DNA from: Escherichia phage SUSP2
Strand: one strand, 5' to 3'
Length of the DNA stretch: 64,000 nt
Sequence record: KT454806
The notes beneath the pieces were generated by a model, which saw only the letters and a program-made list of their open reading frames with translations, did no database searches and had not been told where the DNA came from. Both the position numbers and the translations under genes were made by a program. Of this stretch, positions 28,322-63,958 are shown piece by piece (within the stretch, counting starts at the first letter, position 1; the number at the start of each line of letters is the position of its first letter).

Positions 28322-28927
<606 letters not shown>

Positions 28928-29081: not shown

Positions 29082-29118
29082 ATTAAAAGACCCTCTTAAA
29101 GACCTTTTAAAAAGGTAA

Positions 29119-29142
29119 GTCTCATTTTCATGTAGCTGAGAC
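29119..29142 (-). other. Internal hairpin in operon leader (possible attenuator)
   Basis: On - strand: GTCTCA-12 nt-TGAGAC followed 5 nt later by TTTTT. Confidence 0.35.
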
Positions 29143-29153
29143 TAACTACCCAT

Positions 29154-29210
29154 ACCAAACCTTACAATACCTAGCCTTACCACACCGAACCAAACCACAC
29201 CCAACCGAAC
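29154..29210 (+). repeat. Phased pentamer array B2, 12 ACCNN units
   Basis: ACC-like trinucleotide at 29154+5k; preceded by leader TGTAGCTGAGACTAACTACCC. Confidence 0.8.
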
Positions 29211-29248
29211 ATCACTTAAAAACCCTTTTCAAAGACCCTTAAGTGATG
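29210..29248 (+). other. Conserved hairpin motif H1, second copy
   Basis: CATCACTTAA-19 nt-TTAAGTGATG; differs from 27696-27734 copy at one loop position. Confidence 0.7.
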
Positions 29249-29278
29249 CTGGTGAGTACCCGTTGGTTTATGCTGCTC

Positions 29279-29306
29279 AGTATACTCACCAAATTTTCTA
29301 TGTCAA
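29279..29306 (-). promoter_or_regulatory. Sigma70-like promoter (TTGACA-N16-TATACT) driving the repeat-containing leader and two-gene operon
   Basis: -35 TTGACA = reverse complement of 29301-29306, -10 TATACT = reverse complement of 29279-29284. Confidence 0.55.
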
Positions 29307-29491
29307 CAATTTTCTAATAAAGTTTTATAAAGATTTTGCTTAACGACCCGCCTCACATGCCTATGCTCTTTCTTAATAAAGAGTGACCTCTTCTTGACAG
29401 AGCGCCTATTCTTGTAGGTATTACTAGGATACTTATCATGAACCGGACAACAACTACCCGGATTTGTAAACTTGATAATCTCTCTTTTCAC
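29303..29491 (-). CDS. Small highly basic protein
   Basis: 62-aa Lys/Arg-rich ORF; start overlaps ligase stop (coupling). Confidence 0.4.
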   Translation of the reverse strand: MKREIIKFTNPGSCCPVHDKYPSNTYKNRRSVKKRSLFIKKEHRHVRRVVKQNLYKTLLENC

Positions 29492-30615
29492 TATTCATAA
29501 TCCCTAATAACGAGACCAACAGGGAACTGTAAAGACCCCTTACGAGTCATCTTCTGGAACTGAACCGTCAAAGGTTTCCCGATAAACTCTTCAGGATGTT
29601 CAGCAAGATACTGTTTCTTTTCATGGGTAGTTTTCCATGAAACATCTACAAAGACGTTAGGAAGAGTCTCTACAACGAACTTACCATGACCACGTTTATC
29701 AGTCTTCACACCAGTTACTTTAAATTCTTCCGTGTGCATCTTCTTATGCTTAATCAGGAAGTAAGAACGGTGACCACACTCATAGAAAGATTCTGCTGAG
29801 ATGGAACGGTACATTGCCCCTTCAAACTTCAGCTTAACCCAATTGTCATGGGCTTTGTCGAACTCTTCCCAAGAGTTAACACGGATAGTTTGCACAGGTA
29901 CAACCCTACAAGCATCACCGAGTTCAACAATTGGAGAGTTATCAATGATTTCACGGCGCTCAGGCCAAGTTTTAGTTTTGTCACAGATATCATACCAGTA
30001 GAATTTAAGTAGGTGACGGTCTGGATTGTCAGCATTCTTAATCATAGACACGATATCTTCTAAATCCCAACCATGAGCATAGATTTCACCATCAAAATCT
30101 TGAACTTGTGGGTGGCATTTAAGCATCAGAAGCAAGTCTGGAATTAACTCTTCAGGTACGTTGTACACAGTATTTTCACGGGAGTAAGCTGTGAAGTTCA
30201 CTGAGTCAGCATCTCTTGATATACGGCAACGAACACCATCAAGCTTCGGTTGAGCATCAGCAGGGAACTTCAAATACTTGGCATGACTGACCTTTGCAGC
30301 ATCTTGTGCAAGTTGTACACCAACCTTCTCAGTGTTCTCTGCTTCAGATTTTGTGTAAGCATAACCTTTACGGTCAACCTGTTTCTTGTACTTAGCAGCA
30401 ACTTCAAAGAGAGCTTGCTGTTCAGCATTACGCTCATTCTTTTTACCGATGTTTTTCGGTTCTGCTGTGTACTCTTCAAACATCATCTTGCCATTTTCTT
30501 TGCCATACGTGGTAACAACTTTGTCACCTACAGCGACACATGACCAGACATTAAAAGAGCCATCTTTATTTTGTTTGTACAGAATTGTCATCATCAATCT
30601 CCAGAATGATACCAA
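29491..30615 (-). CDS. ATP-dependent DNA ligase
   Basis: Adenylation motif I KLDGVR; size about 374 aa like T7-type ligases. Confidence 0.75.
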   Translation of the reverse strand: MVSFWRLMMTILYKQNKDGSFNVWSCVAVGDKVVTTYGKENGKMMFEEYTAEPKNIGKKNERNAEQQALFEVAAKYKKQVDRKGYAYTKSEAENTEKVGVQLAQDAAKVSHAKYLKFPADAQPKLDGVRCRISRDADSVNFTAYSRENTVYNVPEELIPDLLLMLKCHPQVQDFDGEIYAHGWDLEDIVSMIKNADNPDRHLLKFYWYDICDKTKTWPERREIIDNSPIVELGDACRVVPVQTIRVNSWEEFDKAHDNWVKLKFEGAMYRSISAESFYECGHRSYFLIKHKKMHTEEFKVTGVKTDKRGHGKFVVETLPNVFVDVSWKTTHEKKQYLAEHPEEFIGKPLTVQFQKMTRKGSLQFPVGLVIRDYE

Positions 30616-30785
30616 GTGTCACAAGAGTTACACGCGAAGAGTTTTAAATCCTCCTTGTTTGGTTTATGAAAACAATTTGCCCCACAACGGCAATGGAATG
30701 CCTTACCACCAACTGTCAAGATAAAAGACTCAACCTCTCCATCAGGTGTTCTTACAGCATTCTTAAATTTGTCTTCTTTACTCAT
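30594..30785 (-). CDS. Small zinc-finger protein
   Basis: CRCGANC...CNSC Cys cluster. Confidence 0.4.
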   Translation of the reverse strand: MSKEDKFKNAVRTPDGEVESFILTVGGKAFHCRCGANCFHKPNKEDLKLFACNSCDTWYHSGD

Positions 30786-30988
30786 TTTCTCTTCCCACCA
30801 ATTTCTACATCAATAACCTGAACATCACCAGCAACATCAAACTTGTGAATGATGTTCTCTACAGTGTAAGTCCAACCTTCAATGCGAACCCATTCACCTT
30901 CTCGTGGTACTATTGGATTACGTTGAGCTACCGTTGTAGTAGAGTGAACAACATCATAACGGTATACATAGTTTACTAAAACTTGCAT
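30782..30988 (-). CDS. Hypothetical protein
   Basis: 68-aa coupled ORF. Confidence 0.35.
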   Translation of the reverse strand: MQVLVNYVYRYDVVHSTTTVAQRNPIVPREGEWVRIEGWTYTVENIIHKFDVAGDVQVIDVEIGGKRK

Positions 30989-30997
30989 AGTGTTTCC

Positions 30998-31225
30998 TTA
31001 AAAGAATAAGTCAGAGGCTTTTGGAGAATCTTGCACAATACTCCACCCTGATTTCTGCCAATCAAGACCACGATACCATGAAGTCATCGGGTAACCCATT
31101 TCACAGACAATGGTTCCATCTTTCATTTCAAAGAACTCATCAGATGTGAAGTTCTCATTACGTACTTTCTTACCTTGCTTCATTGCTTCAACAGCTTCTT
31201 CAAAAGTCATTTTTGGTTTCTCCAA
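30998..31225 (-). CDS. Hypothetical protein
   Basis: 75-aa ORF. Confidence 0.35.
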   Translation of the reverse strand: MEKPKMTFEEAVEAMKQGKKVRNENFTSDEFFEMKDGTIVCEMGYPMTSWYRGLDWQKSGWSIVQDSPKASDLFF

Positions 31226-31228
31226 TAC

Positions 31229-31441
31229 TTAAAAGTTAATGTCGATGCGTTCACCCTTAAGGACTCCAGTGCGGTCTCTTGCAATCTTACCGTCAACAAT
31301 AAGGATATGTGCAGCCCTTAAAGAGTCACGATTAAAACCTTTTACGAACTTACTAGGCATCACTACAATGAGCATCTCCTGAATCAACTCTGGAGTGTAG
31401 CAGTTGTCGTGAAGTTGTTGGATAACGTCTGAAAGTGTCAT
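31229..31441 (-). CDS. Hypothetical protein
   Basis: 70-aa ORF. Confidence 0.35.
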   Translation of the reverse strand: MTLSDVIQQLHDNCYTPELIQEMLIVVMPSKFVKGFNRDSLRAAHILIVDGKIARDRTGVLKGERIDINF

Positions 31442-31492
31442 AAACCCTCCTATACAAGATACAGTATAAGGTACTCTTCCATGAGCACCTTG

Positions 31493-32020
31493 TCAACTTA
31501 GTTTTGCAAACTCTCCGTGAAGTTTCATAGAAGCTTCACAGTAAGCTTTATGGGCTTCTTCAGGGGTGTCATAGTAGCCTAATGACATCTTTTTACCTTT
31601 ATAGCTTATTTGCGCAACCCACCTACCAGACTTCTTCTTCAGGCTTACACCCTTATAGCCTGATTTATTGGTGGATAGTTTGCTTTTATTCCAAGCACTT
31701 TGGCAGTCGTCTGCTTCTCTTAAGTTTACAATCCTGTTATCAAGGGAGTCCCCATTACTATGGTCAATAACACCTTTAGGTAACCTACCATACACGTACA
31801 GCCATGCGAGTCTGTGCGCTTTATGTGCTTTCTTGTCAAAATAGATAGTAATCTGCTTATGACCAGTTGAGTCAATCTGGAGGCTTCCCGCTACCTGTCC
31901 TGCGTACTGGCTATTAAAAACTTTAACAGCCTTTGAGTCGCCCTCTCTACGAAGCCAAGTAAAGACCCCTATTTCGGGGTCATAGTGTAGTAGTTCCTTT
32001 AAACGTTCTTGTGTAATCAT
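31493..32020 (-). CDS. HNH homing endonuclease with AP2 DNA-binding domain
   Basis: HNH motif HSNGDSLDNRIVNLR; AP2-like GYKGVS...GRWVAQI...LGYYDTPEEAHKAY; immediately downstream of DNA polymerase gene. Confidence 0.7.
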   Translation of the reverse strand: MITQERLKELLHYDPEIGVFTWLRREGDSKAVKVFNSQYAGQVAGSLQIDSTGHKQITIYFDKKAHKAHRLAWLYVYGRLPKGVIDHSNGDSLDNRIVNLREADDCQSAWNKSKLSTNKSGYKGVSLKKKSGRWVAQISYKGKKMSLGYYDTPEEAHKAYCEASMKLHGEFAKLS

Positions 32021-32030
32021 TTTGTCACCA

Positions 32031-34730
32031 TTAATGCACTTCCAACCACGATTTACCGACCTTACCAGTACCAGTTACCAGTGTTTTACTCTTTAGTCCT
32101 AAGTTCTTAGAGGCTTGCCCGTAATACCAATCAGTGACAGCCTTCACCTCTGCCGTCATACTTTCTGGACATTCCCAACTTGTCTCATCGTGATAGGAGC
32201 ACAATAAACGAGCACCTATAGCTGGTTTACGACCGTTCAACTTCATCAAACCTTCGTCAATCATACGACGGCAAGCAAGGTTAATTGCCTCGTTCTGAAT
32301 CTGGCTTTCCGAACCCATCAGTAAGTAGTTCAATAGTTTGTGTGGAGATTTACACCACAACCATGCTCCAGCCACCTTGACAAAACCACCTTTAGAGATT
32401 GCAGCAGTCTTACCAAATACTTCTTCAAGTGCTTTCTTAGTTGCTTTAAAGTCAGCTTCCAAGTTGTCTAACAGTTTCTTAATCTTCGGCAAACGCACAA
32501 AGTAAGTCTGTTTAGTTAATGCACCTTCCTGAGTAGTCGCAGCTTTAATCGTCTTAGCAAACTTCTCATCACCAGCACCGAACAGTAACGCATAGATACC
32601 ATTCTTAGCTTTCTTACGACCTTTGCTAATTTCGTGAAGAAGATTTTCATCCTGAGTCATACGACAAGTCAAGATATCTTGTTCTTCATTCAAGCTGAAG
32701 TAGATACTGTTCAGTGTATGTGCATCAGTACCTGAGTAAACTACGTACAAGTCATTTTCAGAGTCGTAATGCAGATACTTATCAACTTCTGGATTCAGGT
32801 ATTCGTCAAAGTGTTTGCAGTAGTATCTGCCATCTTCCTGACGGATAAACTCAATCTCTTCTTTACCCTGAGTTACTGCTTTGGTGAACTCTTTGTCACC
32901 CATAAAGTTGCACAGTAAAACAAGTTGCGCTGAATTCATGTCAACGGAGACTACGTTTGTACCTTCTTCACAAATCCAGACTGCCCTCATTGGTTCACCG
33001 TAAACAGCAGCCCCAGAAGGTACGTTCACGATTCCGTATTGTGTCATACGTCCAGTTGAAGTGCCAAACACCATTGCACCAGCACTCAAACGACCATCTG
33101 GACGAATCTGGTTTAACCAACCTTTTTCATCATCCTTTGAGTTCTCGATAGTTCTGCGTCGGTGCATCAAAGTATAGTACTTCGCAATCTTCTGTCCAAG
33201 TTCACCTTCAATCGTATCGTAAGATGATTCAGTCAGTTTCGGTGAAGTCCGAATCAAGCAAGGTTCAAGCAAATCTGTGTACTTCTTAACAGACCAGTTG
33301 TGTTCGATGTACTGTACACCTTCATGCTCAACATAGTTCAATCCGCAACGGTCTACCATCTCTTGCCATTTCGGATGTTTACGAATCATCTTCTTGTTGT
33401 CTTTGAAGCGACAAACCTTCACCGGACGACCATCAGAATCTTTCTTGTAGTTCCAGTCATCAGGAATCCAGCCAAGAGTTTTCAGATAATCCTTCACAAC
33501 CGCAACCTGAGTCATACGCGACACTTCGAACTCAATCGGTGTATAAGGTGCATCAATCAAACCTGTGTAACGACTTGACTCAAGTTCAAAGTGATTTACT
33601 ACGTGGTTGTTGTAGTACTTCACAGTCTTCACAGTCTTAACTGGTTTCCAGTCTTTGCACTTCTTATCAATCGCAGCATTCAACTCATTACAAACTGCAC
33701 GAGCATCTTTCATTGCAACGAAACCTTCTTTGTACTCTTCTCCAGTAACCGTGTTAGTCGGAGTGTAGCAGTTACGCTTCTCAATGTTGAAAATCTTGGT
33801 AGTCGGTTTACCAAAAGGCTTGATAGCGTAAGTCTGCATCTCACCATTGCGAACCTGCTGACGGAACTTAGTTTTTGGATACTTAGTGATACGCTTCAAA
33901 CCATCTGCTTCACCAAATGTCTCAACATACTCGTTCCAAGCCCTTGCAAACTCTTCACCAGTGACTTTGCCTTTCGTCTTAATAGTTGGTGGCAGATGAG
34001 GCTCAACTTCAGCAGCTAATTCATCAGTCAGTCTGTCAAGTTCTTTGACATGGAACTGCATAAGTTCAATATCAGCTTTCCAACCGTTAATAGCTTGCTG
34101 ACTCATCCAGAAAGATGTTTCTTTAGCTCGCATGTAGGTTTCGTAAGTGTCTACACCACACTTCTTCAGTTTCAGGTATTCATTATCAAGAGCACGTTTA
34201 GCTTTGGCGTTGATTCGAATATCCTCAACAACACGGTTCAGAATGTCAGCATTCCAGACACCCCACTCTTCAATTTCTGGTTTACGAACACCAACACGAG
34301 CACCCCATGCAGCCAAACCATGAGCACCTTTGTAACCTTTCGGTGTAGGTCTATCCATCCACTGAACACGAGACTGGATAAGAGAATCCTGAAAGAAGTC
34401 TCCCCAAGGTTTACACTTCGGATTGTCAAAGTTCCATAAGTCCGGTGCAATGTGATTGAACACCCACCAGTCATAGCCAAGACCGTTATGAATGCAGAGA
34501 CGTTTTGCCTTAAGAGCAAACTCCACACCTTCACGAAGACCACCTTTGATGTACTTAGTACACTTGTGACCAAGGATAGGTTCATCGGTGAAGACCCACA
34601 CAGCAGGTTCGTCACTGTCATCTTTGTAATCTGCAAATGCCATTACGTGTGCTTTTGTGAACTCAAGGAGTAACCCATCAGTTTCGGTATCACCTACCAA
34701 GTGCAAGTTTTCAAAATCTACGTTTTCCAT
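32031..34730 (-). CDS. DNA polymerase, family A, with 3'-5' exonuclease domain
   Basis: Exo I motif VGDTETDGL; Pol A motif B-like KKAKNGIYALLFGAG; motif C YHDE. Confidence 0.8.
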   Translation of the reverse strand: MENVDFENLHLVGDTETDGLLLEFTKAHVMAFADYKDDSDEPAVWVFTDEPILGHKCTKYIKGGLREGVEFALKAKRLCIHNGLGYDWWVFNHIAPDLWNFDNPKCKPWGDFFQDSLIQSRVQWMDRPTPKGYKGAHGLAAWGARVGVRKPEIEEWGVWNADILNRVVEDIRINAKAKRALDNEYLKLKKCGVDTYETYMRAKETSFWMSQQAINGWKADIELMQFHVKELDRLTDELAAEVEPHLPPTIKTKGKVTGEEFARAWNEYVETFGEADGLKRITKYPKTKFRQQVRNGEMQTYAIKPFGKPTTKIFNIEKRNCYTPTNTVTGEEYKEGFVAMKDARAVCNELNAAIDKKCKDWKPVKTVKTVKYYNNHVVNHFELESSRYTGLIDAPYTPIEFEVSRMTQVAVVKDYLKTLGWIPDDWNYKKDSDGRPVKVCRFKDNKKMIRKHPKWQEMVDRCGLNYVEHEGVQYIEHNWSVKKYTDLLEPCLIRTSPKLTESSYDTIEGELGQKIAKYYTLMHRRRTIENSKDDEKGWLNQIRPDGRLSAGAMVFGTSTGRMTQYGIVNVPSGAAVYGEPMRAVWICEEGTNVVSVDMNSAQLVLLCNFMGDKEFTKAVTQGKEEIEFIRQEDGRYYCKHFDEYLNPEVDKYLHYDSENDLYVVYSGTDAHTLNSIYFSLNEEQDILTCRMTQDENLLHEISKGRKKAKNGIYALLFGAGDEKFAKTIKAATTQEGALTKQTYFVRLPKIKKLLDNLEADFKATKKALEEVFGKTAAISKGGFVKVAGAWLWCKSPHKLLNYLLMGSESQIQNEAINLACRRMIDEGLMKLNGRKPAIGARLLCSYHDETSWECPESMTAEVKAVTDWYYGQASKNLGLKSKTLVTGTGKVGKSWLEVH

Positions 34731-34987
34731 TTTTACTCCCTCTCAAAATCATTGACTCAATACATTACTGCAAAAAGTTTCAAAAAGCAAGTTGACAATT
34801 CACTTGACAAGGTGTTAATCTTTGCGAAGTGGGTTTTAACTTAAAAGACTCCCTTTACAGATTAACTATACAGTTTCTTTAAAACCCTTAAAAGATTTTT
34901 AATAGCTTTTAAGAAGCTTTAAAGTTATACGTATAGAATACGTAAAGAAAACAGATTAAGTTTAATAGGTACTTAAAAGAGGGCATT
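34731..34987. promoter_or_regulatory. Divergent control region between DNA polymerase and rightward early genes
   Basis: Tandem TTGACA boxes (34792-34797, 34804-34809), palindromic cluster TATACGTATAGAATACGTA (34926-34944), AT-rich. Confidence 0.4.
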
Positions 34988-40592: not shown

Positions 40593-41633
40593 ATGGAAAA
40601 GTATACGTTAACAAAACTCCCAGATACTGTGACGCATGTCTTTATTGACTCTGATAGTATCGCTTACAAGGGAGCCTGTGTCGTTGAGAAAGCAAAGTAC
40701 AAGTATGTGAATAAACTTACTGCTGAAGAGTCTGATGCCTTTGAGAGTGCTAAAGATGCTAATCAATGGCTATCTGACCAGAGAGTTCTGACAGAGGAAC
40801 TTGGTCTTGCATTCGATGAAGATGAATGGGAAAGACAGTCTTGGAAAGAAGCCAAGAGTGAAAAAGAAGCTATTATGGCAACTCAACAAGTTCTTCAGGA
40901 ATGGTTGAAAGTTGTTGGTAAAGAGCGAACTTGGATGGGATACCTCACTGAGAAAGGTGTACATAAACACAAAGACATTAAAGGTCTTGAACACCAGTAT
41001 CAGGGTAACCGTAAAGAATCAGTAACCCCTACGCATTTAGTTGCTTGTCGTGAGTATCTTCTGTCACGACCTGAGTTTAAGCTTCTCAAAGGTGGCTTTG
41101 AAGCTGACTCCATTGTTATTGCAAAAGCTGAGAAGATGGGTAAGAAGGCTGCTCTTATGAGTATTGATAAAGACCTTCGCCAAGCGGAAGGAACTTACTG
41201 TATTGATATGACTTACGAGAAAGCCCCTCTGATTTTCATTGCAGATGGTAACGTAGGTGATATTTGGGATTGTCCTATCAAGTCTAAGCCGAAAGCTAAA
41301 AAGACTGTTGGTGTAGGCTTCAAATTCCTCTGCTATCAAGCTGTAGCAGGAGATAACGCAGATAACTACTTTGGCCTTAAGGGTGCAGGGAAAGTTGCTG
41401 TAATGAACGCTCTGGAAGGTAAAGAGACCTATAAAGAGTGTCTTGACGCTATCTATGAACTCTACGCTAAGAAAGAGTCATATACTTATGAATCGTGGGA
41501 TGGTCAGGTGATTACAAAAACACCTCTTGAATTAATGCACCAGCACTTCTGGATTGCCTATCAAGAACGTAACCCTAAAGACGATTTCACCTTTGCTAAA
41601 TATGGTTGGGAGCCTGTTATGAATGAAGATTAA
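40593..41633 (+). CDS. RNase H / 5'-3' exonuclease (FEN family)
   Basis: N-terminal VFIDSDSIAY and internal EADS...SIDKDL motifs resembling T4 RNase H; GGAGA RBS. Confidence 0.5.
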   Translation: MEKYTLTKLPDTVTHVFIDSDSIAYKGACVVEKAKYKYVNKLTAEESDAFESAKDANQWLSDQRVLTEELGLAFDEDEWERQSWKEAKSEKEAIMATQQVLQEWLKVVGKERTWMGYLTEKGVHKHKDIKGLEHQYQGNRKESVTPTHLVACREYLLSRPEFKLLKGGFEADSIVIAKAEKMGKKAALMSIDKDLRQAEGTYCIDMTYEKAPLIFIADGNVGDIWDCPIKSKPKAKKTVGVGFKFLCYQAVAGDNADNYFGLKGAGKVAVMNALEGKETYKECLDAIYELYAKKESYTYESWDGQVITKTPLELMHQHFWIAYQERNPKDDFTFAKYGWEPVMNED

Positions 41634-42123
41634 AGGTTTTGGCAATTGCCCTGAATATGGACATTGGATTTCACTGTGCGGGGAGATTGACCCCGCTAAG
41701 TATTTTGGTTTCGTTTACTTAGTGTACTGCAAAAAGACTGGACAGTATTACATCGGTAAGAAGCAGTTTAACAATGTCACCAAGAAGAAAGTAGCTGGAA
41801 AGACCAGACGTAAGATTGTGACAAAAGAGAGTGACTGGATGGTTTACCAGACCTCTTCTGAGTACATTAAGAAAGATATTGAAACTTTCGGTGAAAAAGA
41901 GTTTGACTTCTATATTGTGCAAACTTATTATACGCGAGGTGGGTTGGTCTACGGAGAAGCTAACCTTCAACATAAGTTTGACGTCATGACAAAAAGGATT
42001 GACTCCAAGCTTCGACTCTTCTACAATGCAAACATTGCAGCAATCAAGTTTCTTACTAAAGAGACTTATGAAGATGCTGAGAAGAGAATCCATAAAATCA
42101 TGAAACTTAATGAGAGAGAATAA
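41623..42123 (+). CDS. GIY-YIG domain nuclease
   Basis: FVYLVY...YYIGKK matches GIY-(about 10 aa)-YIG; overlaps end of exonuclease gene. Confidence 0.5.
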   Translation: MKIKGFGNCPEYGHWISLCGEIDPAKYFGFVYLVYCKKTGQYYIGKKQFNNVTKKKVAGKTRRKIVTKESDWMVYQTSSEYIKKDIETFGEKEFDFYIVQTYYTRGGLVYGEANLQHKFDVMTKRIDSKLRLFYNANIAAIKFLTKETYEDAEKRIHKIMKLNERE

Positions 42124-42127: not shown

Positions 42128-42337
42128 ATGTTTAACAAACTGAAGAATGACCACGTAGCTAAAATTGACAGCCACATTGCAGCACTGAAAGATGCAATCA
42201 TCAAAGCTAAAGAAGCTACGGAGTCCGAAATGGAGGCTCTTGAGTCCCAGATTCAGCACCTGATTAACAAGCGTGTTGAACTGAAAGGCCGACTGGATTA
42301 TATTGAGTCTCAGCAGAAACTGTTTCAGGAGGTTTAA
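42128..42337 (+). CDS. Hypothetical coiled-coil protein
   Basis: Short helical ORF; track ORF starts at 42110. Confidence 0.35.
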   Translation: MFNKLKNDHVAKIDSHIAALKDAIIKAKEATESEMEALESQIQHLINKRVELKGRLDYIESQQKLFQEV

Positions 42338-43092
42338 TGTTTAATTCCAGAGAATCCGTTTTAACTTGGAACCAGCGTTGTGGTAAAACCCCGTTGACTC
42401 CGTATACACCTGAGTACTGGTCTTCGATGCGTAGTCAAGCACTTTGCATGTTAGAAGAAGCCAAAGAGCTTTTGAAAGCTGTTGATGAAAAAGACCCTAT
42501 CGAGGCTCTTGATGCTCAGGCAGACTTACAGTATGTTCTTGATGGACTGATTTACCTTTCACAGCATGACCATGACGGAGCTATGAAAGCAGTCTGTGAG
42601 AATAACAACCTGAAGTATACCGATAACTACGAAGAAGCTTTGAAGCGTCTTGCAGATATCGAGAAACGTACTGGTGATGAATGTCGTGTACGTGCTTCAA
42701 TGATTGACGGCAAAGAGTGGTACGCCATTATCCGTGAGTCTGATAAGAAGGTTATGAAGCAATCTAATCTTCCTAAAGTACAGCTTGCAGAGTTCATCGC
42801 GGAACTTGAAAGCAGAGAATTGTTCGTGGTAACATCTGACACATGCGTTATCTGTAAAGGTCTTGTAGGAAGTTTGAAAGACCTTGGATTGAGTGACTTC
42901 ACAGAAGTTCGACCAATCAGTTCGAAAGCAGACAAAGACTTCTGCCGAGAAAACGGATTATGGCTTGCAGATATTGTTTACTATGACGGTGAGAAGTTCC
43001 ATGTGACCTCATACCCGAAACTGAACTATGATGCAAATAACCTTAAGAATTGGTTAAAAGGGGTTGGTTATAATGGATTCACAGAACATTAA
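42337..43092 (+). CDS. Putative MazG-like NTP pyrophosphohydrolase fused to CxxC (thioredoxin/glutaredoxin-like) domain
   Basis: EExxE...ExxD helical motif (LEEAKELL, EALDAQADLQY) at N-terminus; CVIC motif in C-terminal half. Confidence 0.35.
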   Translation: MFNSRESVLTWNQRCGKTPLTPYTPEYWSSMRSQALCMLEEAKELLKAVDEKDPIEALDAQADLQYVLDGLIYLSQHDHDGAMKAVCENNNLKYTDNYEEALKRLADIEKRTGDECRVRASMIDGKEWYAIIRESDKKVMKQSNLPKVQLAEFIAELESRELFVVTSDTCVICKGLVGSLKDLGLSDFTEVRPISSKADKDFCRENGLWLADIVYYDGEKFHVTSYPKLNYDANNLKNWLKGVGYNGFTEH

Positions 43093-47636: not shown

Positions 47637-47835
47637 GCGTTTGTGGGAAGGTTTCACAGTTGATGCACCGATGATTGTCTTAGGTTTCTTCTTTGTGAAC
47701 CTGTTTATTGATATCAAACAAGGCGCTTTGTTTGGTGCTATGCTAGTATGGGTAATCTTTGAGATTCTAGAAATCCATCTTGACATTAGCGGCAAACTCA
47801 AAAAGTTTGTTGAGAAGATTTTCAAAAAGAATTAA
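47629..47835 (+). CDS. Small two-helix membrane protein
   Basis: 68 aa, two hydrophobic segments, charged C-terminus. Confidence 0.4.
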   Translation: MLKRLWEGFTVDAPMIVLGFFFVNLFIDIKQGALFGAMLVWVIFEILEIHLDISGKLKKFVEKIFKKN

Positions 47836-47841
47836 TATAAG

Positions 47842-47863
47842 GGTCTCTTCGGAGACCTTTTTC
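47842..47863 (+). terminator. Rho-independent terminator (UUCG loop)
   Basis: GGTCTC-TTCG-GAGACC followed by TTTTT. Confidence 0.65.
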
Positions 47864-47881
47864 GTATATAAAGGAGCACAA

Positions 47882-50023
47882 ATGGTCAAAGTACAAATTA
47901 TTAAAAAGAATGGCTCACTTGAAGAACCAGACATTAAGAAAGTCCTAGCAGCAGTTACAAAGTCAGCTAACCGAGTTGGCTATAAAGAACTCCCGTTAGA
48001 AGTTGTTCATGCTCTTGAGTCAGCTTTTATGCGGATTCTTGTAAAGGCTTCTAACCAGAATGCTTTGCTGATTTCTGTAGATGACATTCACAGCATTGTT
48101 GAAGGGGCTTTAGCAGAAGTTAATCACGAGATTTATGAATCTTATTCAACCTATCGTAACTATCGTAAAGAGGTTGCACAGAATTGGGATGAACTCTATC
48201 AGAAGACTAAAGATACCCTCTTCTTAGGTGACCGTGAGAATGCTAACTTTGACAGCAGCTTAATCTCTACAAAGGGTTCTATTATCCGTGGGTATCTGAC
48301 TAAAGAAATCTTCAAGCAGTATCACTTGACACCAGAAGAACTCGAAGCTATTGAAGCAGGTTTCATCTACATTCATGACCTGAGAGATTTGGTATTTGGT
48401 GGTATTAACTGTTGTCTGTTTGATATTGGTAAAGTCCTGAAAGGTGGCTTTGAAATGTCAGGGATTGAATATTGTGAACCTAAATCTGTTCTGTCAGCTT
48501 TACAGGTTATTGGTGATGTTGTATTGTCAGCAACTGCACAGCAGTTTGGTGGATTCACAATCCCAGAGATTGACAAGATTCTTGTACCATATGCTAAGAA
48601 GTCTCTACGTTACCATGCTGAGAAAGCAACCTCTTACGGGATTCCTAAAGAGCATTACTACAACTATGTAATGGAGCAGCTACAGATTGAGCTAACTCAA
48701 GGCTTTCAGTCACTGGAGATGAAGCTGAACACTGTACCTTGCAGCCGTGGTGACTTTGCATTCACAACTTTAACATTTGGTTTACTTGGTTCAGATATGT
48801 CTGATGAAGATAACCGTCTTCAGTATATGATTGCAAACACTATTCTTGATGTTCGTATGAATGGTCAAGGAAAGAACAAGAAGCCTGTTGTATTCCCTAA
48901 ATTGGTTTACATTCATGACCACACAAGACACAGTGAAGATATCTGTCAAGGGCAACTGTACAATAAAGCTATCGAGTGTTGCTCTAAAGCAATGTACCCA
49001 GACTTCTTGAGTGTATCCGGTCATGGTGCTGTTGCAGAATCTTTTGAACGTTCTGGTAAGGTTATTTCACCGATGGGTTGTCGAGCTTTCCTGTCACCAT
49101 ACTATGACGAAAATGGAGAAGAGTTCTGCGTTGGTCGTGCAAATATTGGTGCAGTGTCTTTGAACTTGCCAATGATTTACCAGTATGCTAAAGAGAATGG
49201 TTTAGACTTCTGGAAAGAGCTTGACAAATACCTTGAAATGATTCGTAGCTTCCATAAGAAACGCTATGAGATGATTGCTAATATGCCAGCAAGTTCAAAC
49301 CCTCTGGCATTTACACAAGGTGGCCTGTACAAAGGGGATAAGAAGCCAACTGATAAGATTGGGTGGGATACTGTGAAATCCTTCACAGCTTCTTTCGGTG
49401 TAACCGCACTTGATGAACTCTCTGTACTGGCTGGAGAAGGTAGACTGCATGAATCTCAGAAAGTGATTGCACAGCAAGTTCTGGACTACCTGAATGACCG
49501 TCTGGCGAACTTTAAAGAGCAAGATGGCTTCTTGTATGCCCTTTATGGTACACCTGCTGAGAGCCTTTGTGGGACGCAATTGAAGCAGTTCCGTAATATG
49601 TTTGGTGTTGTGAAAGATGTTTCTGATAAAGAATACTTCACTAACAGTTTCCATATGAACGTTGCAGCAGATATTACTCCGTATCAGAAGCAAGACTTGG
49701 AAGAACCTCTGTTCCATAGCTGTAACGGTGGTCACATCCAGTACATTCGTCTTGCTAATCCAGAGAATCATAAAGCTATCAAGGCTTGTGTCTCAAGAGG
49801 TATGGGTAAGGGATTCTATCAAGGTGTGAACTTTGACTTAGCAATCTGTGAGAATTGTGGTCATCGTCCTAATGCAGACGTTGAAGAGTGTCCTAAGTGT
49901 CATTCACATGATATCTCAGTCATTAACCGTGTTTGTGGTTACCTTGGATGGACTAAAATCAAGGGAACTTCAAGAATGAATGATGCAAAGATTGCTGAAA
50001 TTCGTGACAGAAAATCTATGTAA
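47882..50023 (+). CDS. nrdD: Anaerobic ribonucleotide reductase (class III)
   Basis: C-terminal glycyl-radical motif RVCGYLG and Cys cluster (CENCGH...CPKC); ATG at 47882 with AAGGAG RBS. Confidence 0.75.
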   Translation: MVKVQIIKKNGSLEEPDIKKVLAAVTKSANRVGYKELPLEVVHALESAFMRILVKASNQNALLISVDDIHSIVEGALAEVNHEIYESYSTYRNYRKEVAQNWDELYQKTKDTLFLGDRENANFDSSLISTKGSIIRGYLTKEIFKQYHLTPEELEAIEAGFIYIHDLRDLVFGGINCCLFDIGKVLKGGFEMSGIEYCEPKSVLSALQVIGDVVLSATAQQFGGFTIPEIDKILVPYAKKSLRYHAEKATSYGIPKEHYYNYVMEQLQIELTQGFQSLEMKLNTVPCSRGDFAFTTLTFGLLGSDMSDEDNRLQYMIANTILDVRMNGQGKNKKPVVFPKLVYIHDHTRHSEDICQGQLYNKAIECCSKAMYPDFLSVSGHGAVAESFERSGKVISPMGCRAFLSPYYDENGEEFCVGRANIGAVSLNLPMIYQYAKENGLDFWKELDKYLEMIRSFHKKRYEMIANMPASSNPLAFTQGGLYKGDKKPTDKIGWDTVKSFTASFGVTALDELSVLAGEGRLHESQKVIAQQVLDYLNDRLANFKEQDGFLYALYGTPAESLCGTQLKQFRNMFGVVKDVSDKEYFTNSFHMNVAADITPYQKQDLEEPLFHSCNGGHIQYIRLANPENHKAIKACVSRGMGKGFYQGVNFDLAICENCGHRPNADVEECPKCHSHDISVINRVCGYLGWTKIKGTSRMNDAKIAEIRDRKSM

Positions 50024-51925: not shown

Positions 51926-51938
51926 TAAGTTATGATTA

Positions 51939-51964
51939 GGGAACTGTAAAAGGTTCCCTTTTTA
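51939..51964 (+). terminator. Rho-independent terminator
   Basis: GGGAAC-TGTAAAA-GGTTCCC followed by TTTTT. Confidence 0.6.
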
Positions 51965-51977: not shown

Positions 51978-52493
51978 ATGTACTTATCTAACTTGAAACG
52001 TGCTGCTGCAATGTCTGTTCTAAGACTTGACTTTGATGAACGTCAAGAGTTTATTGATTCCCATCAGTATGACCCTTCCAATTCTAATCACATGGTTCTC
52101 TGGAATCGTGGGAAGTTCCGTGACAGTTCCCTCTTTGCATACTACCCTCACTATACAATTGACAACCTCTATGAGTACTGTGTTGTCAAGAACACTATTG
52201 CAACTCTTAACAAGCTTTGTCGTTATTCTGGCAAGCAAGCCTTTACATTAGGCCACCACAAGCCCGTTACAAAAGGTGGTGAGCATCACTGTGCAAACTG
52301 GTTTATCCAGACTAAGATTGATAACCAGAAGCAAGGTGAGAGGGTTTTAGATACTCCAAAGATGACTTATGAAGAACAAAAAGAGTATCTAAGAAATAAT
52401 ATGCCACCAATGCTTGACAGGGAATATGTAGTTCTGGCAATATCTCTCCTGTTGAAATTCGAGACTGTTTATAAGGCGACTTATCATGGCTAG
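51978..52493 (+). CDS. HNH-motif endonuclease-like protein
   Basis: GHHKPVTKGGEHHCANW...N motif resembling HNH. Confidence 0.45.
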   Translation: MYLSNLKRAAAMSVLRLDFDERQEFIDSHQYDPSNSNHMVLWNRGKFRDSSLFAYYPHYTIDNLYEYCVVKNTIATLNKLCRYSGKQAFTLGHHKPVTKGGEHHCANWFIQTKIDNQKQGERVLDTPKMTYEEQKEYLRNNMPPMLDREYVVLAISLLLKFETVYKATYHG

Positions 52494-52764
52494 AGCAGAT
52501 TGGGAAATAAAAGACCTTGTAAGTGAGGCTGGCAATGGTTGTGAGATGTATATGATTCGTGGTCATGTACCAGACTCATTAGCACTTGAGATGATTGACC
52601 ATCACACAAATGGATTCTACAAAGAACTTGGTGAACCAAATGTTGAACGCACTTGGACAAAACCAGTACCGGATGGCACAGGCAACTGTTCGGTTATCTA
52701 TCACATTGTGAATCCACAAAAATGTAAAACAGCTATGGCTGTAACCTTCGTAACTTTTGATTGA
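52486..52764 (+). CDS. Hypothetical protein
   Basis: 92-aa ORF. Confidence 0.35.
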   Translation: MARADWEIKDLVSEAGNGCEMYMIRGHVPDSLALEMIDHHTNGFYKELGEPNVERTWTKPVPDGTGNCSVIYHIVNPQKCKTAMAVTFVTFD

Positions 52765-52776
52765 GAGAGATTAAAG

Positions 52777-53658
52777 ATGAAAACTATTATTACCGTACTG
52801 TTGCACTCACAGAAGAAAGGTGCTCACCAAGAAGAGTTCAACATTATCCAGTTCCCGTCTGGAGAAATCGGTGGAAACTTCTCCGAAGAACTAGTGACCT
52901 ATGCTGAAAAGAATGCTTCCCAGATTGAGAACGTCATCTTCACTGTACAGGGTTACAACAAAGATACTCTGTTTGCTTTAGCTCTGGCAAAAGAAGCTAT
53001 TGATAAACTAATTCCTCAGAAAGCAACGATGAAGACTGTCATTTTTGCTTATCTGCCAAATGCTCGTTATGACCGTCACATGTTTAAAGGTGATGCAGCA
53101 GCACTGAAGGTGTTTGCAAATCTTGTCAATGCAATGGATTTTGATGCAGTATGTGCTCTGGATGCTCATAGTGATGTTGCAGATAACTTGTTCAAATGCT
53201 TTCAGAACATCCCTCAAAAAGAGGTTGCAGCACACTATGCAAGTGAGCCAACTATTGATTTCTTGGTAGCACCAGACGCAGGAGCAGCTAAGAAGATTGC
53301 AGAGACGGCTAAAGAGGTTGATAAACCTTACGTAACAATGGCTAAGGTTCGAGACCTGAAGACTGGTGAGATTACAGGTATGCGTCTGCTTGACGATGTA
53401 GACCTGACTGGTAAAACTGTTCTCATTATTGATGATATCTGTGATGGTGGTCGTACATTCATTGAAGCAGCCAAGTATCTTCGTGAAGCTGGAGCAGCTA
53501 AAGTTGAACTGTATGTAACACACGGTATTTTCTCAAAAGGTGTTGAAAACCTGCTTGACAATGGGATTTCACACATCTACACTACAGACTCTTTAGGCAG
53601 TTCGAAAGACCGTGGTCTTACTCATTTCGGTCAAGTAACTGTAGCAAACATTTACTAA
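52777..53658 (+). CDS. Ribose-phosphate pyrophosphokinase-like protein (Prs homolog; possible ADP-ribose pyrophosphate synthetase)
   Basis: Type I PRTase PRPP-binding motif VLIIDDICDGGRT; about 293 aa; directly upstream of NAMPT-like gene. Confidence 0.6.
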   Translation: MKTIITVLLHSQKKGAHQEEFNIIQFPSGEIGGNFSEELVTYAEKNASQIENVIFTVQGYNKDTLFALALAKEAIDKLIPQKATMKTVIFAYLPNARYDRHMFKGDAAALKVFANLVNAMDFDAVCALDAHSDVADNLFKCFQNIPQKEVAAHYASEPTIDFLVAPDAGAAKKIAETAKEVDKPYVTMAKVRDLKTGEITGMRLLDDVDLTGKTVLIIDDICDGGRTFIEAAKYLREAGAAKVELYVTHGIFSKGVENLLDNGISHIYTTDSLGSSKDRGLTHFGQVTVANIY

Positions 53659-53667
53659 AATTAATCA

Positions 53668-53689
53668 GGGGCTGAAAAGCCCCACTTTG
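53668..53689 (+). other. Hairpin GGGGCT-GAAA-AGCCCC without clear U-tract
   Basis: Inverted repeat between the Prs-like and NAMPT-like genes. Confidence 0.35.
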
Positions 53690-53704
53690 AGAGAGATTAA
53701 AAAC

Positions 53705-55531
53705 ATGTCTAAATCAATCTATGCAGTTCCAGCAGGTCTTAATGCAGATGCTTACAAAGCTGGTCACATCTACCAGTATCCAAGTGCAACTCAGTATCTG
53801 ATGCTGAACCTTACACCTCGTGGTGATAAGTGGTTCAACACTCCTTTGGAGACTGATGGTGTAGTTGCTTTTGGTATCCAACGTTTTGTGAAAGATTATC
53901 TGGTAGACCACTGGAATGCAACGTTCTTTGAACGTGATAAGAAAGAAGCCGTTGATGAAATCTTAGAAATCATGAATGGTGTACTTGGTGCAGATGCCAT
54001 TGGTCGCCAACATTGGGAAGAACTTCACGACTTAGGTTATCTGCCAGTGGCAGTATACTCTGTTGAAGAAGGTACAATTGTCCCTATGCGTGTTCCAATG
54101 ATTATCTTCAAAAATACCGTTGAAGGTTTCCATTGGGTAGCTGGTTATCTGGAAGATGCTTTCTCTGCTGAAATCTGGAAAGCTTGTACCATTGCAACTA
54201 TTGCATTACATTACAAACGTATCTGTAAAGGTTGGGCTGACAAGACTTGTGACAATGACTTCCATCTGCCTTGGCAGTGTCACGACTTTGCAATGCGTGG
54301 TATGTCTGGTTTCACAGACGATGCCTTCAATGCTGTAGGCCATCTTACCAGCTTCAAAGGTACTGATAGCTTCCCTGCTGTGTATACTGCTAAACGTGCA
54401 TATGGACAGTTCATGACTGTAAGTGATATTGGTAACTCTGTTCCAGCAACTGAACACTCTGTGATGTGTGCAAACATTGCATGGAATATGAAAGACCTGT
54501 CAGAAGATGATATTCACTCACAGTATATTATGCAGTCTGATAGCTTACTGGATGCTAAACGTTGGCGTGGTGAGGTTAAAACCTTTGAACATCTTTTGGT
54601 AGATGTTTATCCAACTGGTATTGCAAGTGTTGTTTCTGATACTTACAACTTCTGGCGCACAGTTACAGAGGTTCTCCCAGAACTTCGTGAAGTAATCCTG
54701 AAACGAGATGGAAAACTGGTAATCCGTCCAGACTCTGGTGACCCTGTACACATTGTTACTGGCTATCGTGCAATTGAGTGGGAAAATGCTAAAAGTATGT
54801 ATTACAAACATATGTCAACCATTTCCCCTAACAACACTTATCTGCTTGATGCAATCTTGAATTGTAGCATGTCAGATATGGGTTATGGTTTCTCTGCTTG
54901 GTTAATCTCTGAAGGTTATGAGTTAGTTGTTGATGCAGAAGACTTTAACGTTGCTGATACAGTTAATCTGAAAGAAACTTACAAGACTGGTAAAGTTGTT
55001 GTTAAACGTATGCTGACAGCAGAAATTGATGGTGCTATCAAGACTCTATACAATATCTTTGGTGGAACTGTAAACGCTAAAGGCTACAAAGTTCTTGATG
55101 AGCACATTGGCTTAATCTACGGTGATTCTATCACTCTGGAACGTGCTGAAGAGATTCTTAGTCGTCTTGCTGAAAAGGGCTTTGCAAGTTCTAACGTTGT
55201 TTTTGGTGTTGGTTCATACACTTACCAGTACCTGACTCGTGATACCTTTGCATTCGCTGTCAAAGCAACTCTTGCACAGATAGATGGGGAAGAAATCATG
55301 CTGGCAAAAGACCCTAAAACTGATAGTGGTCTGAAGAAGTCTGCTTTTGGCGGTGTAGTCCCTATGTGGGATGGTGATAAGCTGGAAGCTGTAGATGGTT
55401 TTGGTTTTGCAGAATTTGAAAGCGTACTAGATAACCCTCAGTGTGCTCTGAAGTTGGTATTCTGTGACTCTCAGCCATATGGCTACGTTAATCTTCGTGA
55501 TGTACGAAATGTTATTGACAGACAGCTTTAA
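53705..55531 (+). CDS. Nicotinamide phosphoribosyltransferase family protein (NAMPT-like; possible Namat)
   Basis: FKGTD...YG...GNSVPATEHS motif matching the NAMPT active-site region; ATG at 53705. Confidence 0.75.
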   Translation: MSKSIYAVPAGLNADAYKAGHIYQYPSATQYLMLNLTPRGDKWFNTPLETDGVVAFGIQRFVKDYLVDHWNATFFERDKKEAVDEILEIMNGVLGADAIGRQHWEELHDLGYLPVAVYSVEEGTIVPMRVPMIIFKNTVEGFHWVAGYLEDAFSAEIWKACTIATIALHYKRICKGWADKTCDNDFHLPWQCHDFAMRGMSGFTDDAFNAVGHLTSFKGTDSFPAVYTAKRAYGQFMTVSDIGNSVPATEHSVMCANIAWNMKDLSEDDIHSQYIMQSDSLLDAKRWRGEVKTFEHLLVDVYPTGIASVVSDTYNFWRTVTEVLPELREVILKRDGKLVIRPDSGDPVHIVTGYRAIEWENAKSMYYKHMSTISPNNTYLLDAILNCSMSDMGYGFSAWLISEGYELVVDAEDFNVADTVNLKETYKTGKVVVKRMLTAEIDGAIKTLYNIFGGTVNAKGYKVLDEHIGLIYGDSITLERAEEILSRLAEKGFASSNVVFGVGSYTYQYLTRDTFAFAVKATLAQIDGEEIMLAKDPKTDSGLKKSAFGGVVPMWDGDKLEAVDGFGFAEFESVLDNPQCALKLVFCDSQPYGYVNLRDVRNVIDRQL

Positions 55532-55546
55532 ATAAGTATTATAAGA

Positions 55547-55568
55547 GGCTCCTACGGGAGCCTTTTTA
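55547..55568 (+). terminator. Rho-independent terminator
   Basis: GGCTCC-TACG-GGAGCC followed by TTTTT. Confidence 0.65.
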
Positions 55569-63175: not shown

Positions 63176-63958
63176 ATGGGTATTGTAAAAGTCATCAAAG
63201 GGGATATCTTCACAGACTTTGAAAAAGGTAAGTTTGATATCATCGGTCACGGTTGCAACTGTATGAATCTGATGGGTGCAGGTATCGCTGACAAGATTTC
63301 TAAGGGTTATCCAAAAGCCTATGAAACTGATGCTGAAGTCTACCGTGTAGCAGGAGGAAGAGAGCATAAACCTTGTCAGAAACTGCTTGGTAAACTCTCT
63401 GTAGCACGTCTTAAACAAGGTCGTATTGCTAACCTGTACACTCAGTTGAAGACTGGTAAAGATGCTCGCTACGATGCTCTTGAGAGTGCTCTGTTGAGCC
63501 TTAACCAGTACTGCAAAGTAAATCAATTGAAGAAAGTTGGTCTTCCAATGATTGGTGCAGGGATTGGTGGACTTGACCCGAAAGCTATTGTGGTGATTAT
63601 GAATCACATCTTGAAAGATGTTGATGTTTATCTTTACGTGTTTGAAGAGGCAATGTTTAATACTCTGTCAACATGGGGTAATCACAGTGAACCACAATAC
63701 TTTGCAGGTGTAGCCGTTGTCAACGAAGACGGAGTTACCCTCTTCAGGCATCGTAAGAACAAGGTACATCGGAGTAACCCTCCGGTTGAGCGAATGTCTC
63801 TAAGTAACGCTCAAGTTACCCCGCCGTTGAAAGGAAGTATGCAACGTGCAGTGACATTTGGAAGTGAGCCTGATGTGTACATTCTTGCAGCAAATGAGAA
63901 AGATGCTGAAGCAATTGTAGACATTTCTAATATCAAGTTCTTAGCTGCAAAGAACTAA
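63176..63958 (+). CDS. Macro-domain protein (ADP-ribose binding/processing) with C-terminal extension
   Basis: N-terminal GDIFT...IGHGCNCMNLMGAGIA and later LPMIGAGIGG resemble macro-domain Gly-rich motifs. Confidence 0.5.
   Translation: MGIVKVIKGDIFTDFEKGKFDIIGHGCNCMNLMGAGIADKISKGYPKAYETDAEVYRVAGGREHKPCQKLLGKLSVARLKQGRIANLYTQLKTGKDARYDALESALLSLNQYCKVNQLKKVGLPMIGAGIGGLDPKAIVVIMNHILKDVDVYLYVFEEAMFNTLSTWGNHSEPQYFAGVAVVNEDGVTLFRHRKNKVHRSNPPVERMSLSNAQVTPPLKGSMQRAVTFGSEPDVYILAANEKDAEAIVDISNIKFLAAKN

Follow-up and report, generated by a model that had tools for sequence, protein, structure and literature searches.

A close described counterpart of the locus studied here is the founding, genetically validated NAD+ reconstitution pathway 1 (NARP1) of phage Bas63 (JohannRWettstein), formed by the genes bas63_0079 and bas63_0080, which encode an ADP-ribose diphosphokinase (Adps, Prs-like) and a nicotinamide ADP-ribose transferase (Namat, Nampt-like). 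Deletion of both genes (Δ79-80) made Bas63 sensitive to SIR2-HerA and defined the pathway, and ADPR-PP was seen only when the wild-type phage and a defence system were combined. The evidence for Bas63 is genetic and metabolomic; its Adps purified poorly. The two reactions were demonstrated with enzymes of SpβL1, ICP1, DyoEdafos and P. foliorum, and metabolomically for Bas63. In Vibrio phage Gary the operon, termed NARP1-AP, has the order Adps-Adpp-Namat, where Adpp is a validated NARP1-associated ADPR-1''-phosphate phosphatase with a Macro domain. Another NAD+-restoring system, NARP2 of Vibrio phage KVP40, consists of Nampt and Nmnat, and requires the latter because it follows the route from PRPP to NMN.

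The window analysed is a 64-kb stretch of the genome of SUSP2 (KT454806), a Felix-O1-like phage of E. coli belonging to the genus Suspvirus of the subfamily Ounavirinae. The ORF listing contains a Prs-like ORF (52777..53658) followed by an adjacent NAMPT-like ORF ending at 55531, both on the plus strand, as the sequence-only reading had reported, and both with family matches far beyond chance. The two genes are separated by only 46 nt, which places them within the distance of 10 genes used to define NARP1 in the published survey. Both are already present in the catalogue of Osterman et al. (2024), where KT454806_00074 of SUSP2 is entered as Adps with the remark 'Namat within 10 genes: Yes' (Supp. 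Table 1), and KT454806_00075 as an 'Adps-associated' Namat (Supp. Table 2). The Prs-like ORF is identical to the former at 293 of 293 residues, and the NAMPT-like ORF is identical to the latter over the first 399 residues, the stretch compared; the Namat start (MSKS...) and the order of the genes agree as well, and no difference was seen. Since the pair is identical to the catalogued SUSP2 components and orthologous to the founding Bas63 operon, it is assigned with high confidence as the NARP1 operon of an Ounavirinae phage, and the earlier proposal of a NARP1-type anti-defence pair is upheld. The pair is already published and the finding is not new; because identical genes stand in the catalogue and genetic, biochemical and structural studies have already characterised the orthologous operon, the value of the result is confirmation only, and no open question is advanced.

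SUSP2 and Bas63 share the subfamily Ounavirinae and differ in genus, the latter belonging to Felixounavirus. Over the full length, the identity between them is 77% for Adps and 75% for Namat, and the gene order is conserved: NrdD, NrdG, four small ORFs, the Adps-Namat pair, and then rIIA/rIIB. Both phages also share the sequence motifs of the Namat clamp, including a K-W loop, a Met at the position of ICP1 Adps F92, the large Namat insertion, and a hairpin between the two genes.

By orthology with these systems, the SUSP2 pair would act once an NAD+-cleaving defence of the host, for example SIR2-HerA/Nezha, Thoeris, DSR1/2 or SEFIR, has split NAD+ into ADP-ribose and nicotinamide. Adps would convert ADPR and ATP to ADPR-PP, from which Namat would form NAD+ and pyrophosphate with nicotinamide by Nampt-type chemistry. 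Such a route would regenerate NAD+ directly, and both the NMN intermediate and an NMN adenylyltransferase would be dispensable. We infer from this orthology both what the two SUSP2 enzymes catalyse and that they protect the phage against such defences. Recognition of the pair as NARP1 predicts that SUSP2 withstands NAD+-depleting systems such as SIR2-HerA/Nezha, Thoeris and DSR. This prediction is helpful for the choice of therapeutic phages. The public labels 'ribose-phosphate pyrophosphokinase' and 'nicotinamide/nicotinate phosphoribosyltransferase' still hide a validated anti-defence pathway.

The predicted Adps (52777..53658, plus strand, 293 aa) contains VLIIDDICDGGRTF and matches Pfam Pribosyltran (1.4e-14), Pribosyl_synth (3.4e-10) and PHROG 619 (7e-99); Pribosyltran_N remained below threshold. 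When the protein was mapped onto the characterised structure of ICP1 Adps, to which it is about 32% identical, the equivalents of ICP1 residues F18, R87, H121, D161, K185, D212, D213 and D216 were all found to be kept, so that the acceptor and catalytic residues are shared. In SUSP2 these key residues are F26, R97, H131, D167, K190 and D219/D220/D223, of which K190 is the catalytic Lys within the hairpin KVRDLKTGEI, while the three aspartates sit in the PP loop DDICDGGRTF. The residue F92 of ICP1, which contacts the adenine of ADPR, corresponds to M102 with F103 adjacent, an arrangement identical to that in Bas63. This substitution and a PP loop with GGRT rather than GAAS are points against the assignment.

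The first alternative to NARP1 is a classical salvage route, in which a true PRPP synthetase and a true Nampt would form NMN from PRPP and nicotinamide, with host NadR/NadD completing the synthesis in the manner of a NARP2 lacking the phage Nmnat. Automated annotation and generic family models do name the genes Prs and NAMPT/NAPRT, and Adps passes the broad subfamily model TIGR01251, where it scores 135 bits and the cut-off is 113. This is the only model passed; all NCBIfam Prs equivalog cut-offs were missed widely, the best being NF002095 with 112.6 bits against 296. Compared with E. coli Prs (315 aa), SUSP2 Adps is shorter and its alignment stops short of the Prs C-terminus, so the C-terminal extension is missing; the hairpin reads K-x-R-D-x-x-T-G against KRRPRAN in Prs. 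These features set SUSP2 Adps apart from canonical Prs enzymes: it has apparently lost the regulatory/filament module at the PRPS C-terminus, and its catalytic loop is remodelled. In published assays purified SpβL1 Adps gave no measurable Prs product, and experiments by the authors of the Bas63 work, including a ΔpncC ΔnadR host, indicated that the predicted PRPP and NMN reactions were not those performed.

The second gene bears on the same question. It was listed mechanically as an ORF at 53687..55531 on the plus strand with a TTG start (614 aa) and includes GTDS...SVPATEHS. The start of Namat is most likely the ATG at 53705, predicting a 608 aa protein (53705..55531), because the TTG at 53687 falls inside TTGAGAGAGATTAAA, a 15-nt motif that also directly precedes the Adps ATG. 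The Namat orthologues of EcSzw-2, Bas63 and SUSP2 all begin with MSKS or MTKS. The ORF matches Pfam NAPRTase (4.1e-32), NAMPT_N (2.7e-5) and PHROG 448 (1.8e-196). Its catalytic core comprises HDFAMRG (193-199), GTDS, PATEHS (247-252), VIRPDSGDP (339-347) and IYGDS (471-475), and these motifs align with the residues F189, R192, D215, the catalytic His, R306, D308 and G360-D361 of the structure 9W5W, showing an intact Nampt-type core. The Nampt fold itself is common to the SUSP2 and KVP40 enzymes, together with the purpose of restoring NAD+.

One feature that separates Namat from Nampt is the selectivity clamp. The published signature found only in Namats is GSXΦXΦXΦTRD (PMC12774641), in which the third and seventh residues are aromatic, and the corresponding helix in SUSP2 is GSYTYQYLTRD (aa 503-513, DNA 55211-55243). 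In an alignment of eight sequences this signature is present in all six that are Adps-linked, SUSP2 included, while both Nampts have GGGLLQ..RD instead. In the Namat clamp loop, position 3 is Arg, Lys or Tyr, and either this position or the next one holds a stacking residue. Judged by sequence, its SUSP2 counterpart is TPRGDKWF (aa 37-44), in which TPR-G-D-K-W parallels S-D-K-W of Bas63; the Lys-Trp stands in place of Arg40 of SpβL1 Namat. The best solved-structure match was SpβL1 Namat itself (9W5W/9W5X, 4e-124, 418 bits), which shares the catalytic core and the helix signature, against 175 bits for the Xanthomonas Nampt and about 138 bits for the mammalian one. In the alignment, SUSP2 Namat shows 42-46% identity with the five other Adps-linked Namats, against 28-30% with the two Nampts, Aeh1 NadV and Miro. 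On this small sample, consisting of the eight-sequence alignment and the structure-match scores, SUSP2 Namat appears to belong to the Adps-associated clade, not to the Nmnat-associated Nampt clade. The sequence-only reading had held that sequence alone cannot distinguish NARP1 from classical salvage; this does not stand, because clade membership and the clamp signature differ from those of Nampts and do separate the two.

A classical route of the KVP40 type would also be expected to come with an Nmnat, which according to the published survey is encoded by 94% of the phages with a KVP40-type Nampt. Pfam scans found no CTP_transf_like or NUDIX domains in 30 ORFs of the window, nor in nine larger unannotated Bas63 ORFs past the window's end. 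Six-frame phmmer searches with single E. coli queries across the window, Bas63 (30-87 kb) and EcSzw-2 (1-39 kb) gave no NadD/NadR-like ORF better than E=1.9, while a control with E. coli Prs recovered the Adps ORF at 2.4e-16. The E. coli NadD and NadR queries were used because the 'nucleotidyltransferase' beside nadV of Aeh1, considered as a phage Nmnat control, was rejected as a RlaP-family protein. The scope of the search was thus about 40 profile-scanned ORFs, with the third of the genome beyond the window represented by sequence of the relatives Bas63 and EcSzw-2. The absence of an NMNAT from the window, noted in the earlier reading, is therefore borne out by both methods, and the search for NMNAT or Nudix genes in the rest of the genome, which that reading had proposed, likewise found none in the sequence of these relatives. 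The product of EcSzw2_52, annotated as 'putative NAD synthetase', was discarded as a candidate, since its homologue in the window (41623..42123) is a SegE-type GIY-YIG homing endonuclease (PF19835, 6e-27) and is not NAD-related.

Taken with the clamp signature and the grouping of Namat, these data make classical salvage very unlikely for SUSP2, even though SpβL1 Namat still converts PRPP to NMN in vitro. Because the SpβL1 enzyme keeps this activity, SUSP2 Namat may have a minor NMN-forming side reaction in addition to its predicted role in NARP1.

The organisation of the locus is consistent with a single NARP1 transcription unit. Upstream, a pattern scan located a terminator-like hairpin with a T-run on the plus strand (51938..51959; fold -14.4 kcal/mol, z = -2.6), which is the probable boundary of the unit. 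The predicted unit then comprises two small plus-strand ORFs at 51978..52493 and 52486..52764, whose orthologues are Bas63_0077/78, and continues with Adps and Namat. The translation-initiation motif of the two NARP1 genes is identical: TTGAGAGAGATTAAA, in the ribosome-binding region, occurs on the plus strand directly 5' of the Adps ATG (52761..52775) and again, as a second exact copy, 5' of the Namat ATG (53687..53701). These are the only two exact copies in the 64-kb window, and 0.37 would be expected by chance even with up to two mismatches. Downstream, 12 nt past the Namat stop, lies a strong hairpin resembling an intrinsic terminator (55543..55566, plus strand), with a 10-bp stem followed by TTTTTAATTT; its fold of -17.5 kcal/mol (z = -3.95) was equalled by none of 200 shuffled sequences, and it probably marks the operon end. 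With predicted terminators on either side, at about 51950 and about 55555, Adps and Namat appear to share one transcript. Between the two genes the plus strand carries a GC-rich hairpin, GGGGCT-GAAA-AGCCCC (53668..53683; -13.3 kcal/mol, z = -2.2), with the stem kept and the loop variable in the alignment of SUSP2, Bas63 and EcSzw-2; it has no strong T-run and may help to stabilise the RNA or act as a weak attenuator. A promoter-like site at 52761-52790 was rejected as the Adps promoter, since it overlaps the Adps start codon.

The wider gene neighbourhood raises a second alternative, namely that the pair chiefly supports replication of the phage DNA by enlarging the pools of PRPP or pyridine nucleotides, rather than opposing host defence. 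The genes do lie in a block of nucleotide metabolism, with NrdA/B and NrdD/G upstream, and thymidylate synthase, DHFR and dNMP kinase are encoded elsewhere in the window. However, wild-type Bas63 has been reported to make no excess of NAD+ or ADPR-PP when no defence system is present, and in the absence of NADase activity there is little ADPR, the substrate of the pathway. The Bas63 knockout has already been seen to be defective only on hosts with NADases, its burst size being normal where the host has no defence. The adenine-specific clamp residues are moreover kept in SUSP2 Namat. A role mainly in nucleotide supply is accordingly very unlikely, and NARP1 is retained as the reading of the pair.

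SUSP2 also resembles Vibrio phage Gary in encoding, besides the two core enzymes, a homologue of the Macro-domain phosphatase. This possible accessory gene (63176..63958, plus strand) is the orthologue of bas63_0095, and its 260-aa product has an N-terminal Macro domain (Pfam Macro 2.1e-7, above cut-off; PHROG 335 'phosphatase', 2.4e-99) and a C-terminal extension of about 100 aa. The product is 30% identical (1e-18) to gp172 of Vibrio phage Javier, which is encoded between Adps and Namat and is itself 94% identical to the equivalent in Gary; about 30% identity to Adpp of the Gary type is thus combined with an extra C-terminal region in SUSP2. The position also differs: in Gary the Macro gene lies in the operon, whereas in SUSP2 it is 7.6 kb, or roughly 15 genes, downstream. 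The ORFs flanking NARP1 contain neither Macro (Adpp; checked in the ±2 neighbours) nor RyR-type (RyDEP) domains, and the locus does not constitute a NARP1-AP as defined in the published survey, which covered ±2 genes around NARP1. That the Macro protein is an ADPR-1''-phosphate phosphatase of the Adpp type working in trans is a tentative and rather unlikely possibility. If true, it would give the Ounavirinae a 'split' NARP1-AP that also resists RES-type (aRES) NAD+ phosphorolysis, and the survey range of ±2 genes would have missed the Macro gene, so that NARP1-AP would be undercounted.

Two insertions specific to the lineage are present in SUSP2 Namat, one at about aa 261-285 and the other at about aa 355-440. 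The first is 14 residues longer than that of Bas63. The large one, of ~85 aa, is absent from the five aligned Adps-linked Namats and is about 53% identical to its counterpart in Felixounavirus Namats. That this Ounavirinae-specific segment adds a regulatory or binding function is a much less likely proposition than the split NARP1-AP. A mobile or foreign module was rejected as its origin: tblastn with a 96-aa segment of the insertion matched 288 phage records, and the annotated matches, among those listed, all stay within NAMPT/NAPRT or hypothetical-protein genes. The large insertion therefore looks like a lineage-specific elaboration of Namat and not like an inserted element.

The two ORFs proposed in the sequence-only reading as a NARP1-type anti-defence pair (NAD+ reconstitution pathway 1) are found on the plus strand in the location and with the motifs it described. 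The first, at 52777..53658, encodes a Prs-like protein of 293 aa carrying VLIIDDICDGGRTF, here termed Adps (ADP-ribose diphosphokinase), while the second, ending at 55531, encodes a NAMPT-like protein with the GTDS...SVPATEHS motif, termed Namat (nicotinamide ADP-ribose transferase). Family assignments agree: Pfam detected Pribosyltran (1.4e-14) and Pribosyl_synth (3.4e-10) in Adps, and NAPRTase (4.1e-32) plus NAMPT_N in Namat, with PHROG matches of 7e-99 and 1.8e-196, respectively. In the mechanical ORF list the Namat gene starts with TTG at 53687. A 15-nt motif, TTGAGAGAGATTAAA, is found without mismatch at just two places in the 64 kb window, 52761..52775 and 53687..53701 on the plus strand, one immediately 5' of the Adps start codon and the other immediately 5' of that of Namat. 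Since the TTG falls within the second copy, and the EcSzw-2, Bas63 and SUSP2 orthologues each have MSKS or MTKS at the N-terminus, the true start is almost certainly the ATG at 53705, giving a protein of 608 aa, and the TTG 'start' an artefact. The motif shared by the two genes suggests matched translation initiation.

Three Escherichia phages of the genus Suspvirus (Ounavirinae), EcSzw-2, EcSzw_1 and mistaenkt, match the NARP1 region at 93.5% DNA identity, and many Felix-O1-like phages do so at 82-85%. NARP1 was defined through deletion of genes 79-80 in the BASEL phage Bas63 (JohannRWettstein), a Felixounavirus (Osterman et al., bioRxiv 10.1101/2024.02.11.579819). Comparison with the Bas63 record (MZ501086) revealed 77% gap-free identity between bas63_0079 and the window Adps, 75% identity between bas63_0080 and Namat, and collinearity extending over NrdA/B, NrdD, NrdG, four small ORFs, the pair itself, rIIA/rIIB, PNK and a Macro 'phosphatase'. 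SUSP2 (KT454806) is included in the supplementary tables of Osterman et al.; its tabulated gene 74, flagged as having a Namat within 10 genes, equals the window Adps at 293/293 residues, and gene 75, labelled 'Adps-associated', equals Namat over the 399 residues compared. EcSzw-2, EcSzw_1 and mistaenkt are tabulated likewise. Judged by protein identity, the pair is therefore already published as NARP1, which supports the NARP1-type assignment.

The same reading held that sequence alone could not distinguish NARP1 from classical salvage. This view was overturned, as the two are separable through the Adps residues, the missed Prs thresholds, the Namat clade identity and the clamp signature. Mapping onto the ICP1 Adps structures (PMC13586617) places F18, R87, H121 and D161 at F26, R97, H131 and D167 of the window Adps, the essential K185 at K190, and D212/D213/D216 at D219/D220/D223; the sole departure among the residues mapped is F92, replaced by Met102 with F103 adjacent, and likewise in Bas63. 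Unlike E. coli Prs, the window protein is missing the C-terminal segment, and it has K-x-R-D-x-x-T-G instead of the hairpin KRRPRAN. Its scores fall short of all curated thresholds for Prs equivalogs (112.6 bits in one case, where 296 are required), and the only Prs model that the protein passes is the broad subfamily model TIGR01251, which explains why pipelines keep naming it 'Prs'.

Among solved structures, those of SpβL1 Namat (crystal structures 9W5W/9W5X) match the window Namat best (4e-124, 418 bits), whereas Nampt structures score 175 bits (Xanthomonas) and about 138 bits (mammalian). In an alignment with five Adps-adjacent Namats (Bas63, ICP1, Vibrio phage Javier, Bacillus phage KoopaTroopa and Staphylococcus phage MCE-2014) and two Nampts without a neighbouring Adps (Aeh1 NadV and Klebsiella phage Miro), it shared 42-46% identity with the Namats and 28-30% with the Nampts. 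A 'selectivity clamp helix' with the signature GSXΦXΦXΦTRD is specific to Namat, the aromatics at its positions 3 and 7 stacking on the adenine of ADPR-PP/NAD+ (PMC12774641). This signature was seen in every one of the six Adps-linked sequences aligned, the window protein included (GSYTYQYLTRD, aa 503-513), while both Nampts have GGGLLQ..RD. The predicted clamp loop, TPR-G-D-K-W, has a Lys followed by a stacking-type residue, the arrangement described for Bas63, and the core motifs HDFxMRG, GTDS, PATEHS, VIRPDSGDP and IYGDS all align to SpβL1 residues.

By orthology with the enzymes of the literature, host NADase effectors would cleave NAD+ to ADPR and nicotinamide, Adps would make ADPR-PP by moving the beta-gamma pyrophosphate from ATP onto the terminal ribose in ADPR, and Namat would join ADPR-PP with nicotinamide, regenerating NAD+.

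The reported lack of an NMNAT was upheld. Pfam scans of 30 window ORFs revealed no CTP_transf_like or NUDIX domain; the same scans returned thymidylate synthase, DHFR, ligase, dNMP kinase, a MazG-like domain and others. A six-frame phmmer search of the window, Bas63 30-87 kb and EcSzw-2 1-39 kb with single E. coli NadD and NadR queries gave a best E value of 1.9, while an E. coli Prs query, used as a control, recovered Adps at 2.4e-16. As had been advised, the search for an NMNAT or Nudix gene was also taken past the window's end by way of Bas63, where nine of the larger unannotated ORFs likewise lacked CTP_transf_like and NUDIX domains. The absence of NMNAT in the ORFs searched agrees with the published finding of no phage carrying both NARP1 and NARP2, the Nampt plus Nmnat pathway (Osterman et al., bioRxiv 10.1101/2024.02.11.579819). 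The GenBank annotation of EcSzw2_52 as 'putative NAD synthetase' is misleading and open to being mistaken for an NAD-pathway gene; its window homologue (41623..42123, plus strand) is a SegE-type GIY-YIG homing endonuclease (PF19835, 6e-27).

Upstream of the pair, a terminator-like hairpin is predicted at 51938-51959, followed by two small ORFs, 51978..52493 (PHROG 3500, weak HNH-like match; orthologue of Bas63_0077) and 52486..52764 (PHROG 4726; orthologue of Bas63_0078), all on the plus strand; these ORFs are probably co-transcribed with NARP1. Between Adps and Namat lies a plus-strand GC-rich hairpin, GGGGCT-loop-AGCCCC (53668-53683), its stem invariant and its loop variable among the window, EcSzw-2 and Bas63; lacking a strong T-run, it may stabilise the RNA or act as an attenuator. 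A strong plus-strand terminator (z = -3.95) is predicted 3' of Namat, at 55543-55566.

The only loose ends of this otherwise known NARP1 are two Ounavirinae-specific Namat insertions and a distal Macro gene. Compared with its SpβL1, ICP1 and Staphylococcus counterparts, the window Namat has insertions of about 25 aa (54470..54574, plus strand, aa ~261-285) and about 85 aa (54737..55066, plus strand, aa ~355-440). Bas63 Namat has 14 fewer residues than the window in the smaller one. The larger insertion matched 288 phage records; among the matches listed, it occurs only in Ounavirinae-type genes, annotated as NAMPT/NAPRT or hypothetical, and it diverges faster, Felixounavirus versions being about 53% identical to it as compared with 75% for Namat overall; the KoopaTroopa and Javier proteins have unrelated-looking insertions at this site.

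Published NARP1 extensions comprise an in-operon Macro-domain ADPR-1''-phosphate phosphatase (Adpp, NARP1-AP) or a RyR-domain glycosidase (RyDEP), neither of which was found in the ORFs flanking the window NARP1. On the same strand, 7.6 kb downstream, the plus-strand ORF 63176..63958 (260 aa; PHROG 335 'phosphatase') encodes an N-terminal Macro domain (Pfam, 2.1e-7), weakly resembling yeast Poa1p, TARG1 and DarG macrodomains, and roughly 100 aa of C-terminal extension. Along the entire macro domain the protein matches Vibrio phage Javier gp172 (30% identity, 1e-18), which is located between Adps and Namat in a NARP1-AP operon and is 94% identical to the equivalent protein of Vibrio phage Gary, in which Adpp was validated; the Gary protein also adjoins an Adps-type gene. 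The published NARP1-AP survey covered two genes on each side of NARP1, so that the SUSP2 gene, lying beyond this range, would have gone uncounted. A 'split' NARP1-AP with a distal Macro gene is thus possible, the link being only hypothetical since T4-like phages often carry this Macro family as well.

Elsewhere in the window, the nucleotide-metabolism block includes a plus-strand ORF of 251 aa (42337..43092) with a PRA-PH / MazG-like nucleotide pyrophosphohydrolase domain (PF01503, 3e-7). NrdD (47780..50023, plus strand) is one uninterrupted ORF, whereas that of Bas63 (L007:16631-19517) is annotated as two joined pieces with the homing-endonuclease gene bas63_0068 within, which indicates that this intron/homing element is absent from SUSP2. 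A minus-strand block at ~23500..34800, encoding thymidylate synthase, DHFR, ATP-dependent DNA ligase and DNA polymerase, is flanked by plus-strand structural and replication blocks; GC skew is reversed there (about -0.14 to -0.20).
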